A stretch of DNA of 22,932 bases, taken from positions 1 to 22,932 of IMG/VR virus record IMGVR_UViG_2690316152_000015. One strand, 5' to 3'. Below, piece by piece: positions 9,009-22,932 of this stretch. The translations under genes and the position numbers were made by a program. The notes beneath the pieces were generated by a model, which was not told the origin of the DNA, ran no database searches, and saw nothing but the letters and a program-made list of their open reading frames with translations. How positions within the stretch are numbered: position 1 is the first letter of the stretch; each line of letters opens with the position of its first letter. This stretch comes from a virus. Lineage: Duplodnaviria; Heunggongvirae; Uroviricota; Caudoviricetes.

Positions 9009-9410
9009 TTAAAAACGCGCTAGATAAGAAAATTTAAGGCTAAGTGTCCCAACGATACCCCCATCACTAGAATCATCGTCATAATCGGTATTAGAAGCTA
9101 CTGGAGTGATATCTGAAATAGAGAAGCCCAAATCTTTAAAACGTGGGTTATCCGGCTGAATCTGGATTATCTGGCAAATACCCTCATGAATTTTGGTTTC
9201 ATGAATCTGAGAATATAATTGCATTTCGATAACGCATTCAGCTTGCATTGCATTACCGCCACGAACACGCGTATAAGTTTCATTCATGCCAGTAATCCAA
9301 CAAACCACGTCATCACTAAAGCCTTGCTGAGTTTGTTCTACGTTTAAAGCCAGACCTAAATCTTGTTCGATAATATCTTGCAAGGCGCGTTTGATTTTCA
9401 GTCTCGGCAT
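9009..9410 (-). CDS. Head-tail connector or neck protein
   Basis: Track ORF 9009-9479; likely start is the ATG at 9410 (MPRLKIKRAL...), 4 nt after the upstream stop, avoiding a 65-nt out-of-frame overlap; call by position between capsid and tail genes. Confidence 0.45.
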   Translation of the reverse strand: MPRLKIKRALQDIIEQDLGLALNVEQTQQGFSDDVVCWITGMNETYTRVRGGNAMQAECVIEMQLYSQIHETKIHEGICQIIQIQPDNPRFKDLGFSISDITPVASNTDYDDDSSDGGIVGTLSLKFSYLARF

Positions 9411-9414
9411 ATTA

Positions 9415-9705
9415 TTAACGGTAGCGAGCATGTGTACCCCCTGCCAGAGTAATAAAGCAATCAGTGGTATTATCACCATTGCGCTTAATATATTGAACTT
9501 TGAAACGCTGGTTTTCTACTGTGACAATATCACCTTGCTTTAAGTCTCCCTCACGACAGAATAGAAATTCTGTTTCTGTCATTACCCCTTGTTCGTCGGT
9601 AGTAGTAATTTCATGATAAGCACGAATTGATTTACCACCTTCCACCGAAAATACAGGAGCACTCTTAAACATTCTTGATAATTGTGATTCTGATAATTTG
9701 AACAT
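9415..9705 (-). CDS. Head-tail adaptor or head completion protein
   Basis: 96-aa ORF with strong Shine-Dalgarno (AAAGGGGG), first gene after the capsid gene; call by synteny. Confidence 0.45.
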   Translation of the reverse strand: MFKLSESQLSRMFKSAPVFSVEGGKSIRAYHEITTTDEQGVMTETEFLFCREGDLKQGDIVTVENQRFKVQYIKRNGDNTTDCFITLAGGTHARYR

Positions 9706-16984: not shown

Positions 16985-17800
16985 TTACAGTCCAAAGACT
17001 TCCAGAGAGCCAGCATTCTGGCGGATACGTTCAGCAGCTTTATTTTGAATCAGAATAGTGTTGTTCGGTTTAGGCAGATTCAGAGTTGCTTTCTGTTCTT
17101 CTTCCAGAACACCCAATTCAACCAGCACCGGAAGCACATCAACAGTAAACTCAAGCTGGTAATGAGCATTCATGCGGCAGAAAGACAGAGAAGAATCATT
17201 AGCAACATACCCACACGGCTTGTTATTTTCATCATAGACGCGCTCAATATATCCAGCAGTACGCAAGGCCGTCAGTGCTTCTTTAACCTTCGTAGCGCCC
17301 TTTTTAGCGCCTAACAGACGCGTCATTGAATGGCTATCTACAGACTTACGAACATGAAGTTCAATCAGCTTTTTATTTTCGCGAGTTTTCTTTAACGCCA
17401 GTTCGATCCAGTCGGTTTCTTCAAAGTCTGCATACGGGTTAACGGCTAAACGTTCCTGACGCAGTTTTTCATTTTCTTCTTTCAGTCGTTTCCATTCCTG
17501 AATAACAACCAGACGACGATTAACATCGTAACCAGTGACAAGAGTCAGCGTCATTTCTTCGTCTAAGTGATATTCGGTTTGTTCACGTCCACACTGGTCA
17601 AGATAGGTGCGCTCAAAACTGAGCACATCTAATTCCAGAGCATCGAGCATGGATTTAATATCACGTTTAACGTTTTTGTGTTCTTTTCCGGTAAATTCAG
17701 CGATCTGACGGGAAGACATGGTCAGCGGTTTGGTGTTATCAACAACCAGAGACACGGAAGCAGTTTTAACAGCAGTATTCATAACAGTAACAGTATTCAT
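16985..17800 (-). CDS. Rha-family phage regulatory protein or antirepressor
   Basis: 271-aa ORF; N-terminal SSRQIAEFTGKEHKNVKRDI matches the Rha-domain signature as I remember it; C-terminal region resembles antirepressor C-terminal domains. Confidence 0.75.
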   Translation of the reverse strand: MNTVTVMNTAVKTASVSLVVDNTKPLTMSSRQIAEFTGKEHKNVKRDIKSMLDALELDVLSFERTYLDQCGREQTEYHLDEEMTLTLVTGYDVNRRLVVIQEWKRLKEENEKLRQERLAVNPYADFEETDWIELALKKTRENKKLIELHVRKSVDSHSMTRLLGAKKGATKVKEALTALRTAGYIERVYDENNKPCGYVANDSSLSFCRMNAHYQLEFTVDVLPVLVELGVLEEEQKATLNLPKPNNTILIQNKAAERIRQNAGSLEVFGL

Positions 17801-17886
17801 AGTATTAATTCCCCTTAAACGGTTTAGTGATTTGGTCCTCCTAGTTCCGGCATCTCAACCGGAACAATTTTATTTATAAGAAGTTT

Positions 17887-18039
17887 TTATCTCATCTTAG
17901 ATTCGGCAAGACAGCGATCAATTTCTTCTTGAATGAGGCGTTTGCGCTCGTGGAAATCAACCATTGAGAAATTCAGGTTAGGTGTCCACGGTTTGCGGTT
18001 CGGGTTTTTACGTCCATCAATTTTCTTGGTAGTGTTCAT
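17887..18039 (-). CDS. Small basic protein (50 aa), not in the supplied ORF track
   Basis: ATG at 18039 preceded by AAGAGGATG-type Shine-Dalgarno; MNTTKKIDGRKNPNRKPWTPNLNFSMVDFHERKRLIQEEIDRCLAESKMR; lies between the promoter at 18098-18126 and the Rha gene. Confidence 0.4.
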   Translation of the reverse strand: MNTTKKIDGRKNPNRKPWTPNLNFSMVDFHERKRLIQEEIDRCLAESKMR

Positions 18040-18097
18040 AATTAACATCCTCTTTACAAATCTAGGTCAAATCGGTTCAAAGTTGTCAAGTGCGACA

Positions 18098-18126
18098 ATC
18101 ATAAAAAAGCCAGAAAAATTTGTCAA
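18098..18126 (-). promoter_or_regulatory. Sigma70-type promoter directed toward the Rha gene, with overlapping palindromic operator
   Basis: On the minus strand TTGACA (18126-18121), 17-nt spacer, TATGAT (18103-18098); the -35 is one half of the inverted repeat TTGTCAA-N6-TTGACAA (18120-18139); further TTGACA-like hexamers at 18065-18157. Confidence 0.5.
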
Positions 18127-18161
18127 CACCCCTTGACAAGATGCCAAAGGGTTGACCTAAC

Positions 18162-18629
18162 TTACAGCATATCTAAGCCTTCATCATAGCCATAGAAGCC
18201 ATTCTGAGAAGAAAAAGCGATTGGTGCATAGTCATCGTCATCTTCGTCTTGTTCGTCTTCTTCTGGGGCTTCCTGAGCGTTTTCTTTACCGTAGTTAAAC
18301 ATTGCTTCGTCCAGTTCACGAAGAGTCAAGAAGCTACCCAGATCAATGTCACCGGAACGGACTTCAAACGGCAGATCATCACGAACAATAATTGCTGGTA
18401 GATTCTGGTACTTTAAGCGGTCTTCATCGGTGAAGCAGTTAACAACGATGGTCGGCTTCTTATTACGGAAAAACGCATACCATGCACTAGAGAAATGGGA
18501 TTCATCAGAGTTGAAAAGAATGTTGTAACGACGTTCAACAAAGATTTTCATTAACTTGTCATTGTGGAAGCTATCAGCATCAAAACCTAACAGGATGAAA
18601 GGAGTAGTGGTAGTCATTTTATGGTTCAT
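18162..18629 (-). CDS. Hypothetical acidic protein
   Basis: 155-aa ORF with AGAGGA Shine-Dalgarno; C-terminal third strongly acidic (EEDEQDEDDDDY); no recognisable catalytic motif. Confidence 0.55.
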   Translation of the reverse strand: MNHKMTTTTPFILLGFDADSFHNDKLMKIFVERRYNILFNSDESHFSSAWYAFFRNKKPTIVVNCFTDEDRLKYQNLPAIIVRDDLPFEVRSGDIDLGSFLTLRELDEAMFNYGKENAQEAPEEDEQDEDDDDYAPIAFSSQNGFYGYDEGLDML

Positions 18630-18835
18630 AGTGGAAATCCTCTAAAAGAAAGTGAATCAAGTAAGTACACTATTATTTATAACGAGAAAATTTTATCTCT
18701 TTTAGAAGGTGATTGTATTCAGTCGGGCTAAAGCCCTCCTTCATAGATTGTCTAAAAGTACATCAAACGTGGACCCTTCATTATGTAAATTATAGATCAT
18801 ACTCGTTTGAAGAAATAATAATCAGAAAGCAATAT

Positions 18836-18872
18836 AGCAACCGAAGGTTGCAATCCCGAAGGGATACCAATA
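18836..18872 (-). other. Two tandem UUCG-tetraloop hairpins in the minus-strand leader
   Basis: Minus-strand RNA UCCC-UUCG-GGGA and GCAACC-UUCG-GGUUGC, adjacent; upstream of the acidic-protein gene. Confidence 0.4.
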
Positions 18873-18889
18873 CCTTTCATGATCATTAA

Positions 18890-19135
18890 AGTGATCTAGA
18901 ATCATCTAGTAACCAGTTAACTACTATTATCTTCAAAGTGATTATTACTATCTTTCTAGAATCAGTTAGTAACTAGTATTAAATCCCTTTCGAGAAAATC
19001 CTTTCAGAAGTGATTCTCGATGCCACGCAGTGGCGTCGCAGACGTTTGAGAGTGAGCGAAGCGAGCAAGCAAACTAGTTAATTCCTTCTAAGACCATCTA
19101 GTATCATCTAGTTTAAATTAGTTGTTACTAGAAGC
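18890..19135. repeat. CTAG-rich direct and inverted repeats (candidate operator array)
   Basis: Nine CTAG tetramers in about 240 bp; repeated CTAGAATCA[TG][CT]TAGTAAC[CT]AGT at about 18896 and 18957, related CATCTAGT copies near 19096-19115; internal palindromes AGTTAACT and ACTAGT. Confidence 0.5.
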
Positions 19136-19261
19136 AATTGGTTGGCGCTTCGCGCAGTCGGGCTACGCCCTCCTAATATCTTTTTGGTTATTTGTTGTTT
19201 TTAGTTTTACACATGAGCGTAGCGAATGTGTTTATATAATATCTATGTACGCCGAATCCCC

Positions 19262-19447
19262 GCTTTTGCCCCTCACTAAGTTAATGTTTTATAAAGAGTT
19301 TTTCTCACCATTCCTTTTCGGGGGCAAATTTCAGGGGCAAAAATTAGATTTTCAGGGGCAATTATTGACATTTCAGGGGCAAAAATGGGATAGTGGAATC
19401 TTGGGGATTTTGTTCGGGGGCAAAAATTCAAAATTTCAGGGGCAATT
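19262..19447. repeat. Iteron-like array: six direct and one inverted copy of TTYCRGGGGCAA(A) with 21-bp periodicity
   Basis: GGGGCAA cores at 19321, 19334, 19355, 19376, 19417, 19439 (spacings 13, 21, 21, 41, 22) plus inverted copy at 19266-19272; followed by perfect palindrome CTATCAAA-TAT-TTTGATAG (19449-19467) and an AT-rich tract. Confidence 0.6.
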
Positions 19448-19641
19448 TCTATCAAATATTTTGATAGAAAATTCTTGTATATTATTTAACCAAAAAATCA
19501 CCAAAAATCGCTGCAACTTAATGATTTAAAAGAAATTTTCACTTACAAACGCAGTCATAATAGGTTATAAAGGTTGATAATCGTTATTCGCCATTTTCAA
19601 GCAAAATTTTTGATAGTCTTTTCTCGCTTAGATCAAGGGTA

Positions 19642-19670
19642 TTGACAACTGTCAAGAACTATTTTATACT
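19642..19670 (+). promoter_or_regulatory. Near-consensus sigma70 promoter with palindromic operator over the -35
   Basis: TTGACA (19642-19647), 17-nt spacer, TATACT (19665-19670); the -35 lies in the inverted repeat TTGACA-AC-TGTCAA. Confidence 0.65.
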
Positions 19671-19676
19671 TTTTCT

Positions 19677-19834
19677 CGTTGGTGGGGGTTGAAATTTTCT
19701 AAACAGTCCCCATATAGATGATAAGCAAGAATTTCCGCGTTATAAATACATGTGTGAAATGATTGTTCACTTCTGAAAATCCCCTGATTCACTGTTAATT
19801 CATACAGCACTGGTTAGATATACAGTGCTTTTTC
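19677..19834 (+). ncRNA. Candidate short transcript or attenuated leader from the promoter at 19642
   Basis: Predicted start about 19677; intrinsic terminator AGCACUG-10 nt loop-CAGUGCU followed by U5 at 19806-19834; duplicated GATATACAGTG and TTATAAATACA[AT]GTG motifs in the leader; the first downstream gene starts at 20012. Confidence 0.3.
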
Positions 19835-20011
19835 GGTTGAATAATGTACGAATTGATTAATTATTAATCTTCTCTTTAGCAATTCGTGCTCCCACTGATC
19901 GGATATACAGTGGTTTTACAGGGTTTTCTGAAAATCATTTTATAAATACAAGTGTTCAGAGCGAAAAGCTCTTTTTTAAGATTTTTTAAACCTAACAATA
20001 GGGGATTAAAA

Positions 20012-20191
20012 ATGGCTAAACCTGTACGATTCACACGAGAGGTATTGCTTCCGATTGCTAAACGTTATTTTGAAGCGATGCAGGGTGACAAGCTGGCGGT
20101 TTTGAAGGAAGAAGGAATTGATCCTTCTGATTTTAGAAAACTGCTAAAACGATATGACATTAAAGTGAAGATTGAAGCTACCGTTTGGTAA
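20012..20191 (+). CDS. Small HTH DNA-binding protein, paralog of 16671-16904
   Basis: Likely start ATG at 20012 (AGGGGA Shine-Dalgarno) rather than the track GTG at 19952; KPVRF...VLKEEGIDPSDFRKLLKRYDIKV aligns with the 16671-16904 product at about one third identity by eye. Confidence 0.55.
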   Translation: MAKPVRFTREVLLPIAKRYFEAMQGDKLAVLKEEGIDPSDFRKLLKRYDIKVKIEATVW

Positions 20192-20305: not shown

Positions 20306-21265
20306 ATGTTATTTTCCGCTAACTTTTTCACTAACGAAGTAACCAACGCTAAAGCAGTTATCAAATTTGGCACCGAAGCAAACAAGAAGATTCAGCCGAA
20401 AGTTGTTGCTCATGTTTCCTTTGCGCAGCAGAAATCCGCTTTCGCTGGCTTTAAAGCACATCGTGAAGCACTGATCGCGGCTGGCTTTGGTGTTGACGGT
20501 AAACTGCCTAACGGCGTTCGTAAAGCAATCGACCGCGTTAAACCTGCTAAAGACGTTGCAGTAGACCACATCGTTACTTTCACCGTTAAGAACTCTTCTG
20601 AACTGTTCCACCTGGTGATTGCTGGTGATACTGCTATCGTTTCCGCTCCTAACATGGATTTTCAGGATACCGCTGATTGTCAAATCACCTTCGGTCGTCG
20701 TAAAGAAGTTACTGGAAAAGCTAAACTGAACTTCACCAAATCCGGCAATACTTACTTTGCTGTATTCTTTAACAGCCATGCTACCGAGAAAGAAGTTGTA
20801 GAACTGGTTGCATATGAAGGTGAAGAAAAAGCACGTATTGAATCCTGCGACGCTTTCGTAGAACTGGAAGCACAAGTTAAGGCGGTTGCTCCTGTTGTTG
20901 AAGATCGTCTGGCTGCACTGGAAGCAGAGATTGCAGAACTGAAAGCTGCACTGAAAGAAAAAGACCAGATCATCGAAGCCCAGAAAGCTGAGATTGAAGA
21001 ACTGAAAGCTAAAGAAGTTGCTCCAGTGGCAGTTGAAGCCGAACAGGAAGTTGAATCTAAAGACTTCTTTACTCAAGCGGTTGAAGCTAAAGACAAACAA
21101 GCTCTTTGGATTCTGCTTAACGAAAAACGCTCTGTGACCGACGTTGCAGAGTGGAACAAATATCTGGTTAAGAAAAACGGTACTTCTGTTCAATTCATCG
21201 ATTTAATGACTGTTCAAGTTTTTGATGCGTTCGAAAATGTGTTCGACGTTCGCAAAGCAGCTTAA
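20306..21265 (+). CDS. Hypothetical protein with central coiled coil; codon usage of a highly expressed gene
   Basis: 319-aa ORF with CAGGAG Shine-Dalgarno; strong preference for CTG, CGT, GAA, AAA, GCT codons; heptad-like segment RLAALEAEIAELKAALKEKDQIIEAQKAEIEELKAKE; function not recognised. Confidence 0.6.
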   Translation: MLFSANFFTNEVTNAKAVIKFGTEANKKIQPKVVAHVSFAQQKSAFAGFKAHREALIAAGFGVDGKLPNGVRKAIDRVKPAKDVAVDHIVTFTVKNSSELFHLVIAGDTAIVSAPNMDFQDTADCQITFGRRKEVTGKAKLNFTKSGNTYFAVFFNSHATEKEVVELVAYEGEEKARIESCDAFVELEAQVKAVAPVVEDRLAALEAEIAELKAALKEKDQIIEAQKAEIEELKAKEVAPVAVEAEQEVESKDFFTQAVEAKDKQALWILLNEKRSVTDVAEWNKYLVKKNGTSVQFIDLMTVQVFDAFENVFDVRKAA

Positions 21266-22380: not shown

Positions 22381-22932
22381 TTAAGACACATCAAATTCAT
22401 CGTCTTCTTCTGGTTCTTGTTCCGGTTCATCCATTAATGGTAATTCTTCTTCCTCGTCTTCTCCTAAATCCGCATTTTCGAACAAGTCCCCTACTTCGTT
22501 TAAACGACGCTCGATGATCTCCCTTAGCTTATTCTTCAATGTTTTCTGATCGGTGGCAGATTCGAGAATTTCTAAAGCGTCGATTGTGGCGATCTGCAAA
22601 ATAGTCTGTTTCACCTTTCCGCAATATTCCGCTAGTTCCTGTTCTACATAACCGACCGGAATCAGGAGATTCATCGCTTCCTGGTTCTCTCGTTCGGCTG
22701 CATCCGCGAGTGCTCTTTCCCGGCGTAATTTCTCGACATCTATTTGTTCTTTGATAGAAGTTTCTTTGAGCGGATTAATGATGTTCTTCAAGACCCATTC
22801 TGTCCCCTCTTTGGCTGGCACGCGTCGTGTATTGGTATTAAATGGCATTCCTCGTTCTTGCCATTTCTTAGCGGCGTTAATTGTATAGCCGTATAAGCGG
22901 GAAATTTCTGTAAGGGTTAATTCTTCTTTCAT
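22381..22932 (-). CDS. Nu1-like terminase small subunit (winged-HTH DNA-binding N-terminus); start coincides with the window edge
   Basis: N-terminus LTLTEISRLYGYTINAAKKWQERGMPF parallels lambda Nu1 (LADIFGASIRTIQNWQEQGMPV, from memory); shared EKLRRE segment; acidic C-terminal tail; located about 6.4 kb from the large terminase gene. Confidence 0.55.
   Translation of the reverse strand: MKEELTLTEISRLYGYTINAAKKWQERGMPFNTNTRRVPAKEGTEWVLKNIINPLKETSIKEQIDVEKLRRERALADAAERENQEAMNLLIPVGYVEQELAEYCGKVKQTILQIATIDALEILESATDQKTLKNKLREIIERRLNEVGDLFENADLGEDEEEELPLMDEPEQEPEEDDEFDVS

Follow-up and report, generated by a model that had tools for sequence, protein, structure and literature searches.

Between the divergent early operons of a prophage of the Caudoviricetes (IMG/VR record IMGVR_UViG_2690316152_000015; the whole 22,932-nucleotide stretch that was analysed is referred to here as the window), a 1.4-kb non-coding stretch at 18630-20011 contains a dense cluster of the tetranucleotide CTAG. 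The CTAGs sit in 10-bp units that follow one another at one unit per helical turn, the core of these units is conserved in relatives from Escherichia coli, Salmonella and Providencia, and the number of units varies among relatives in whole steps. We tentatively read the cluster, with a probability of roughly 40%, as a phased array of protein-binding sites in the early control or origin region of the prophage.

A dense and phased cluster of CTAG repeats

Eight CTAGs lie between 18896 and 19131, starting at 18896, 18906, 18956, 18973, 19074, 19098, 19108 and 19128, and the successive gaps within the region 18890-19135 are 10, 50, 17, 101, 24, 10 and 20 bp. A preliminary description of this DNA had put the count at nine; with that number corrected, its observation of a dense cluster is confirmed. 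At the background rate the 246-bp region would be expected to hold 0.31 CTAGs (Poisson P = 1.8e-9), local base composition predicts 0.82, and the highest number reached in 20,000 shuffles of the region was six. No other 246-bp stretch of the window is as rich in CTAG, and the density in the cluster is about 25 times that in the rest of the window, where 29 CTAGs per 22.7 kb amount to 0.34 of the number expected from base composition. Because of this low ratio, and because every one of 100 dinucleotide-preserving shuffles of the window had a CTAG total equal to or above the observed one, the background can be regarded as depleted of CTAG, just as the preliminary description had assumed. A second and much weaker group, four CTAGs within 124 bp (6148-6271), lies inside a 1164-aa tail-fibre open reading frame (ORF), and no DNA repeats underlie it.

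The 10-bp unit has the consensus TCTAGWAWCA and the core TCTAGAA, conserved as T(T)CTAGAA, and a direct reading of the sequence finds T-A to be nearly invariant at positions 3-4 of the decamer. Five of the nine TAG-to-TAG gaps are exactly 10 bp, an arrangement for which one million random placements give a probability of about 2e-6; the TAGs so spaced are those at 18897 and 18907, at 18957 and 18967, and at 19099, 19109, 19119 and 19129. Allowing at most one mismatch, the decamer is matched seven times in about 240 bp (18895-19132), as against seven times in the other 22.7 kb. The units fall into three clusters, A, B and C (Table 1), the last of them within an imperfect palindrome of about 100 bp, and they occur in both direct and inverted orientation. 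The repetition to which the preliminary description pointed takes the form of a direct-repeat family of four copies, spaced 60, 132 and 10 bp apart, and of an 18-nt inverted repeat that makes up 19097-19132, and the palindromes that it named are likewise present, AGTTAACT once at 18915 and ACTAGT twice, at 18972 and 19073. Two CTAGs and the AGTTAACT palindrome belong to cluster A, clusters A and B have a GC content of 26-28%, and motifs other than the decamer are interleaved with it, namely AAAGTGAT, GAAGTGAT and AAATCC(C)TTTC.

Table 1. Features of the control region and of the genes on either side, in window coordinates.
Feature	Position	Strand	Description
Leftward operon	16985-18629	-	p155 18162-18629; p53 17887-18048; Rha/Ant-family regulator 16985-17800
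Hairpin H1	18720-18739	no strand	CAGTCG-GGC-TAAA-GCC-CTCC; direct repeat of H1'
Twin hairpins	18839-18867	+	GCAACC-GAA-GGTTGC; ATCCC-GAA-GGGAT; G-N-A triloops
Cluster A	18886-18925	no strand	AAAGTGAT 18888-18895, then units TCTAGAATCA / TCTAGTAACC / AGTTAACTAC (18895-18924)
Cluster B and conserved core	18933-19021	no strand	AAAGTGAT 18935; palindrome TTCTAGAA 18954-18961
Cluster B, decamers	18955-18974		TCTAGAATCA / GTTAGTAACT, then ACTAGT (18972)
Cluster B, further motifs			AAATCC(C)TTTC 18981 and 18995; GAAGTGAT 19007; inverted decamer TGATTCTCGA 19011-19020
GC-rich hairpin(s)	19015-19044	+	GCCAC-GCA-GTGGC; CGTC-GCA-GACG; alternatively one longer hairpin from 19015
Cluster C palindrome	19054-19155	no strand	about 100 bp, imperfect; holds 4 CTAGs
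Cluster C, outer arms			GAGCGAAGCG 19054-19063; CGCTTCGCGC 19146-19155
Cluster C, inner arms			CCTTCTAAGA 19084-19093; CTAGAAG 19128-19134; centre TTTAAA 19112-19117
Cluster C, decamers	19097-19136		TCTAGTATCA / TCTAGTTTAA / ATTAGTTGTT / ACTAGAAGCA
Hairpin H1'	19155-19173	no strand	CAGTCG-GGC-TAC-GCC-CTCC; right-hand end of CTAG/hairpin block
Iteron array	19258-19445	+	TTTCAGGGGCAAAA, 6 direct copies and 1 inverted (19264-19273)
AT-rich stretch	19446-19670	+	24-32% GC; inverted repeat TCTATCAAA-TAT-TTTGATAGA 19449-19469; ends in promoter
Best sigma-70-like promoter of region	19642-19670	+	TTGACA-17-TATACT; -35 within palindrome TTGACAACTGTCAA
p59	20012-20191	+	59 aa; in every class; predicted three-helix bundle, pLDDT 80
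p319	20306-21265	+	class-specific N-terminal domain ~1-155; coiled coil ~161-237; swappable C-terminal part

Conservation and variation among relatives

Related loci were taken from IMG/VR (26 loci), with more found through homologues of p319 and p59, two proteins encoded to the right of the array, and they include three loci from Salmonella and one from Providencia; motifs were counted across the family in nine divergent control regions from E. coli, Salmonella and Providencia. Each of these regions contains TCTAGAA, the 13 copies amounting to 53 times the background, and seven contain the palindrome TTCTAGAA. Conservation across genera peaks at 18930-19010, which is to say in cluster B and its flanks, where identity with the Salmonella and Providencia loci is 60-80% per 20-bp bin, and cluster B (query 74-134) is the only part common to nearly all of the 57 complete E. 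coli genomes that carry the element. Within this cluster, CTAGAATCAGTT is invariant among 13 aligned loci. In the class of loci that have GGGGCAA iterons, as the window does, hardly any variation is seen over the whole of 18839-19440, including loci whose adjacent p155 is just 62% identical.

The number of repeats in the array varies by whole units. In two loci (L013 and L016) one cluster C decamer is absent as an exact 10-bp indel, and cluster A occurs in a subset of relatives only, the alignments of L006, L009 and L003 lacking about 37-53 bp at its position. A palindrome is kept at the position of cluster C in every class, with an interior that differs; for example, in the class with GTGTAGG iterons the interior reads CCTG-CTTG-CAGG and contains no CTAG. 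Compared with the window, L030 and Salmonella L062 have the cluster C interior in the opposite orientation, which looks like the outcome of a flip through recombination between the arms of the palindrome, and this inversion fits an orientation-independent binding site better than it fits a promoter or a strand-specific RNA. The segments compared were 19084-19136 of the window, 3830-3880 of L062 and 4800-4850 of L030. The cluster C units of L030 and L062 are TCTAGTATCA / TCTAGTATCA / AAGTAGTTAA, and the phasing is thus kept although the unit sequences differ.

What might read the array

The array is flanked on one side by the start of the operon that encodes p155, p53 and the Rha/Ant-family protein, and on the other by iterons and a class-specific protein of about 320 aa. 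Under the reading that we favour, a sequence-specific protein would bind the decamers cooperatively on double-stranded DNA, and since there is one unit per helical turn, all of the sites would face the same side of the helix. The binder, if there is one, could be a nucleoid protein of the host or a phage protein that the whole family conserves, and it would coat and bend the arrays; the outcome of binding would be to set the expression of the leftward operon, to shape the DNA beside the iterons, or both. The only candidates present in every relative, including the one from Providencia (where p155 and p201 are replaced), are p59 and the Rha-family protein, and from its modelled structure p59 is a candidate DNA-binding protein of helix-turn-helix-like form. 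Binding sites for a phage regulator, one of the possibilities raised in the preliminary description, are still the best explanation, albeit an unproven one, and no binding protein could be identified.

Several further observations weigh against a protein-binding array. The variants of p155, p53, Rha, p59 and p86 do not track the array type of the locus, library scans of the early proteins recognised no DNA-binding family among them, and the fold matches behind the helix-turn-helix reading of p59 are not significant, Foldseek having returned only hits with E above 1, to the DNA-binding domains of Fis, NtrC and homeodomain proteins. The array is reduced to one CTAG unit in L004 and L008 and to degraded decamers in L029, and these remnants mean that the full array is not essential to the family. 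Finally, at least four hairpins kept by compensatory change lie within the same 340 bp as the array, cluster C can itself be drawn as a stem, and part of the symmetry could serve a single-stranded form.

Phased direct repeats that are bound by small switch or architectural proteins of phages are well known from the Cox boxes of P2, the Apl sites of 186 and the X1-X1.5-X2 sites of lambda Xis. The array resembles these in that its short direct repeats, several in number, follow one another at roughly one turn of the helix and belong to the switch region of a temperate phage, and by analogy its binding would be expected to be cooperative, one-sided and DNA-bending. It differs from them in that the sequences are unrelated, no winged-helix protein of this kind was recognised, the recombinase is a large serine recombinase, and the units are also inverted, inside a long palindrome. 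At least three short repeats with a period of about 10-11 bp, as found here, are a feature both of arrays of the Cox/Apl/Xis kind and of those of the ParR type, that is, the plasmid centromeres of R1 (parC/ParR) and pSK41 (ParR), which consist of 10-11-bp iterons bound by ribbon-helix-helix proteins. The centromeres likewise have clusters of tandem repeats of about 10 bp on either side of a central region, but here neither a partition ATPase nor a ribbon-helix-helix protein was found, the predicted fold of p59 is all-helical, and the element is an integrated prophage.

Competing explanations

The block that contains the array is rich in hairpins whose stems diverge between relatives and yet still pair, and selection for hairpin formation, in RNA or in unwound DNA, is therefore to be assumed. 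At the position of the twin hairpins, Salmonella and L030 have other stems (GGACAC-GTA-GTGTCC and CCAC-GAA-GTGG), and three pairs are changed on both sides with pairing retained. The GC-rich hairpins at 19015-19044 have three compensatory pairs (AU to GC, CG to UA and AU to CG) and one invariant U.G pair of the + strand, which on the - strand would turn into an A.C mismatch. The stem of H1 varies as GGGC/GCCC, GGC/GCC and, in L030, GTGC/GCAC, its flanks TTCAGTCG and CTCCTTCA being conserved in eight of the nine divergent relatives, and H1' in L029 is GGCC-TAC-GGCC, again a compensatory change. H1 and H1' together constitute a direct repeat of 19-20 nt (CAGTCG-hairpin-CTCC), the copies of which are 435 bp apart and flank the whole CTAG/hairpin block; in L006 both carry the loop variant AAA, which suggests that the two copies evolve together. 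On the - strand each reads as a hairpin followed by CGACTG, which looks like a hairpin with the primase start trinucleotide CTG.

A function in single-stranded RNA or DNA is for these reasons a serious rival to the protein-binding array, although on balance a doubtful one. The block at about 18839-19175 would in this case act as a non-coding RNA or leader of about 340 nt, or as hairpins extruded from unwound DNA, and CTAG (or UAG) would provide stem sequence in cluster C and linker motifs in clusters A and B for an RNA-binding protein or an antisense partner; variants of the idea are RNA control of anti-repressor operons as in P1, P4 and N15, or DNA priming signals at an origin. In the consensus fold, double changes that preserve pairing affect 10 of the 52 pairs of the + strand and 12 of the 67 of the - strand, entirely different stems stand at matching positions in Salmonella, the segment folds better than its shuffles (z = -3.5 on the + strand and -2.8 on the - strand), and the block lies directly upstream of the operon that contains the gene for the Rha/Ant-family protein. 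G-N-A loops (GAA, GCA, GTA) belong to the + strand in the block's left half, and two hairpins of the right half (19147-19157 and 19160-19170) have them on the - strand; the + strand is slightly favoured by the invariant U.G pair and by a lower consensus energy in E. coli (-48.7 versus -41.6 kcal/mol). The favoured strand nevertheless varies by relative, being + in the E. coli classes and - in L029, with a tie in L030, and assignments of the strand from G.U asymmetry and folding energies were inconsistent between relatives. Rfam gave no match at gathering or permissive thresholds, the best sub-threshold score in the region being 21 bits against a cut-off of 55, and no convincing promoter or canonical terminator was seen at the edges of the block. 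It is also difficult to reconcile a single-stranded function with the inverted interior of cluster C in Salmonella, or with the exact 10-bp period, which is what double-stranded DNA would impose; the known RNA-binding rings that read UAG (TRAP, HutP) have periods of 5-7 nt. Moreover, the consensus fold makes cluster C the stem of a long hairpin and leaves clusters A and B unpaired, and structure therefore does not explain the conservation of the latter two.

A part in replication can also be envisioned, and here the neighbouring iterons come into play. In the window the iteron motif GGGGCAA starts at 19321, 19334, 19355, 19376, 19417 and 19439, with an AT-rich stretch beside it (19430-19580, 24-28% GC), and in relatives the same position is taken by other repeats (GTGTAGG, GTACATCC, CGGGGA, GGAATCTAGGGGA and TTAGTGCAGG), which makes at least six sequence types. 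The type of iteron co-varies with the N-terminal domain of the downstream protein, which is 305-371 aa long, in all ten variants from E. coli, Salmonella and Providencia (the window, L003, L004, L008, L029, L030 and L060-L063); for example, the protein of the Providencia GTGTAGG locus is 60% identical to that of the E. coli GTGTAGG class. The C-terminal part, by contrast, is exchanged independently of the N-terminal domain. Such co-variation is typical of an initiator and the iterons that it binds, lambda O and ori being an example, or of a repressor and its operators, and to judge from it p319 is probably an iteron-binding protein and the module probably serves either origin and initiator or immunity. 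Unlike in lambda, the iterons lie upstream of the gene and not inside it, and p319 resembles neither O nor any Rep protein in sequence or fold. The family of p319 amounts to 11 clusters among 1.8 billion representatives; its model has an N-terminal domain at pLDDT of about 80-90 and a long coiled coil, and the searches revealed no known domain, no convincing fold neighbour and no detectable similarity to any initiator.

That the AT-rich decamers are themselves part of an origin, an unwinding or bendable element of phased T-A steps that would work with the iterons and a p319-type initiator, seems to us rather improbable. In oriC, 13-mers that contain GATC have a comparable role, as do the GATC repeats in P1 oriR; with these the decamers share an over-represented 4-bp palindrome and AT-rich short direct repeats near initiator iterons, but CTAG is not known to be methylated or to be a SeqA target in E. 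coli. The low GC content of clusters A and B, the build of the decamers as short direct repeats around a 4-bp palindrome with a central T-A step, and the presence 120-180 bp away of iterons that co-vary with the N-terminal domain of the adjacent protein, as in lambda ori and O, are all in keeping with such a role, and no other replication gene was recognised in the prophage annotation or among the scanned early proteins. The decamers are, however, separated from the iterons by GC-rich hairpins, which is a departure from oriC and P1 oriR, and the stretch on the other side of the iterons (24% GC) is more AT-rich and would be a more natural unwinding element. A scan of the region found no DnaA boxes, only two matches with one mismatch each, and no full consensus for IHF; p319 lacks the similarity that an initiator might be expected to have; and the iterons, whose role as an origin is putative, may be a set of operators instead.

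The remaining explanations are unlikely. It might be supposed that most of the CTAGs arose recently through local duplication and the formation of palindromes, and lack a function of their own, since cluster A looks like an incomplete duplicate of cluster B, to which it is 87% identical at a distance of 60 bp, and is absent from many relatives, the cluster C decamer that L013 and L016 lack is a 10-bp duplication, and palindromic arms double any motif inside them. This is hard to sustain in view of the persistence of TCTAGAA in all nine relatives, including those from other genera in which the flanks are 42-63% identical, of the conservation peak at cluster B, and of the phasing that L030 and L062 keep despite their differing units. 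Still less likely is a packaging site, equivalent to lambda cosB, for the Nu1-like small terminase (PHROG 57, E = 3e-15) that is encoded together with a gpA-type large terminase, even though the CCTTTC-type motifs are loosely like the lambda R sites. A cos-like GATCGAGGCGGGGAAAGGG lies directly upstream of the small-terminase gene (22381-22932), just beyond the right end of the window and about 3.9 kb away, so that the CTAG region is unlikely to be cos. This site (L001, 25042-25090) is identical at 14 of 14 nt to the left cohesive end of P2 and is followed by an invariant GTCGC-GTA-GCGAC hairpin, both being conserved in E. coli and Salmonella relatives, and from its sequence it is a probable cos, in which case a P2-like cohesive end stands here beside a lambda-type terminase (Nu1-like and gpA-like). 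The control region and this site have a single 10-mer in common, AATCCCTTTC, which other relatives do not conserve at cos. As AATCCCTTTC was found at these two places only, binding of CCTTTC-type motifs by the small terminase was considered, and it was rejected because the copy near cos is not conserved.

Equally remote is the proposal in the preliminary description that the CTAG palindromes are trp-type operators, to be bound by TrpR of the host or by a TrpR-like protein of the phage. The trp operator GTACTAGTTAACTAGTAC is itself a palindromic site with CTAG in it, and ACTAGT (two copies), AGTTAACT and AACTAGTTAA are each similar to a portion of it. On every feature that could be tested (spacing, half-site, flanks, conservation and nearby domain), there is a mismatch. 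The 8-bp distance between the CTAGs of GNACTAGTTAACTAGTNC in the trp operator separates no pair of CTAGs in the window, the period here being 10 bp, and the half-site GTACTAG/CTAGTAC does not occur anywhere in the window. The AGTTAACT at 18915 is flanked by CC..AC and not by CT..AG, so that both flanking CTAG cores are mutated, and it is kept in relatives only as GTAGTTAACTAC, which has no CTAG; the AACTAGTTAA at 19072 has no partner half-site and is replaced by AACCTACCAA or AACCTACTAA in L029, L030 and L062. What the relatives keep is TCTAGAA and the decamer, not the pieces that resemble the trp operator. There is no complete operator here, the sites form three clusters that extend over 240 bp, and Pfam and NCBIfam scans of the early-region proteins found no Trp-repressor domain. 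The resemblance is thus superficial. Likenesses to Tus-Ter, Fis, Lrp, ArcA and OmpR sites, which were judged by eye only, are weak or not conserved; the resemblance of GTTGTTACTA to Ter GTTGTAACTA, for example, is lost in L020.

The prophage and its other early features

The window is part of a prophage of about 35 kb, which is integrated within ycdX in the closest complete genome and encodes a large serine recombinase of 559 aa. Megablast and blastn searches of the region against phage and plasmid collections returned no DNA match, the gpA-type large terminase is at best 44% identical to a phage protein, and by these sequence comparisons the prophage is unlike any characterised or deposited phage; the family is also absent from a one-genome-per-species collection. 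A search of the literature on ycdX prophages and TTCTAGAA operators found nothing relevant. In three PGAP-annotated genomes the 1.4-kb stretch either contains no gene (H36-H47) or contains one short ORF over the iterons, which is probably spurious. In none of the 57 complete E. coli genomes with the element does an annotated gene overlap the matching segment. The rightward genes encode p59, p319 and p123 and lie downstream of the sigma-70-like promoter. Among all early and class-specific proteins, matches in Pfam, PHROG and NCBIfam were limited to the Rha/Ant-family protein and the small terminase.

The promoter and its TTGAC-N4-GTCAA palindrome are kept in L029, L030 and L061-L063 with differing central bases, and TTGACAACTGTCAA is likely to be an operator separate from the CTAG sites. 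Further downstream, in the leader of p59 (19790-19827), two palindromes of LexA-box form abut, CACTGTTAATTCATACAGCA (CTGT-N8-ACAG) and CACTGGTTAGATATACAGTG (CTGG-N8-ACAG), and are conserved in about half of the related loci and in several iteron classes; CACTGGTTAGATATACAGTG is followed by TTTTT, and can equally well be read as an intrinsic terminator. The slot after the p319-type gene is variable and may hold defence cargo: in the Providencia relative (L060, 7141-8043) it contains a gene with an AbiTii domain, of the abortive-infection type.

Elsewhere in the window, an ORF for an IS3-family transposase (1-888) is cut by the window edge and abuts the tail genes of the prophage; it contains a match to the ALIL frameshift pseudoknot (RF01497, 60 bits) at 1-72, and in the closest E. 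coli relative the corresponding region contains an IS5 instead. ARAGORN called a 91-nt tRNA-Gln on the + strand at 9154-9244, inside a - strand ORF (9009-9479) of the structural block, and the length and position of this call suggest that it is a false positive.

Significance

About 1% of complete E. coli genomes carry a prophage of this family, which is found in Salmonella and Providencia as well, and its members have no recognisable repressor, Cro-type protein or replication protein. The whole of the early region is uncharacterised, and it is in the 1.4-kb control region that the logic of lysogeny and replication must be encoded; the CTAG array, the compensated hairpins and the swappable modules of iterons and protein are concrete cis-elements within it. 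If the array has a specific binder, this would represent a new DNA-recognition specificity, in which a tetranucleotide that enterobacteria avoid is read once per helical turn, and if there is no specific binder, the array would be an ordinary, though clean, example of phased operator-like repeats. The CTAG array is, overall, a familiar kind of element in an unexplored prophage family.

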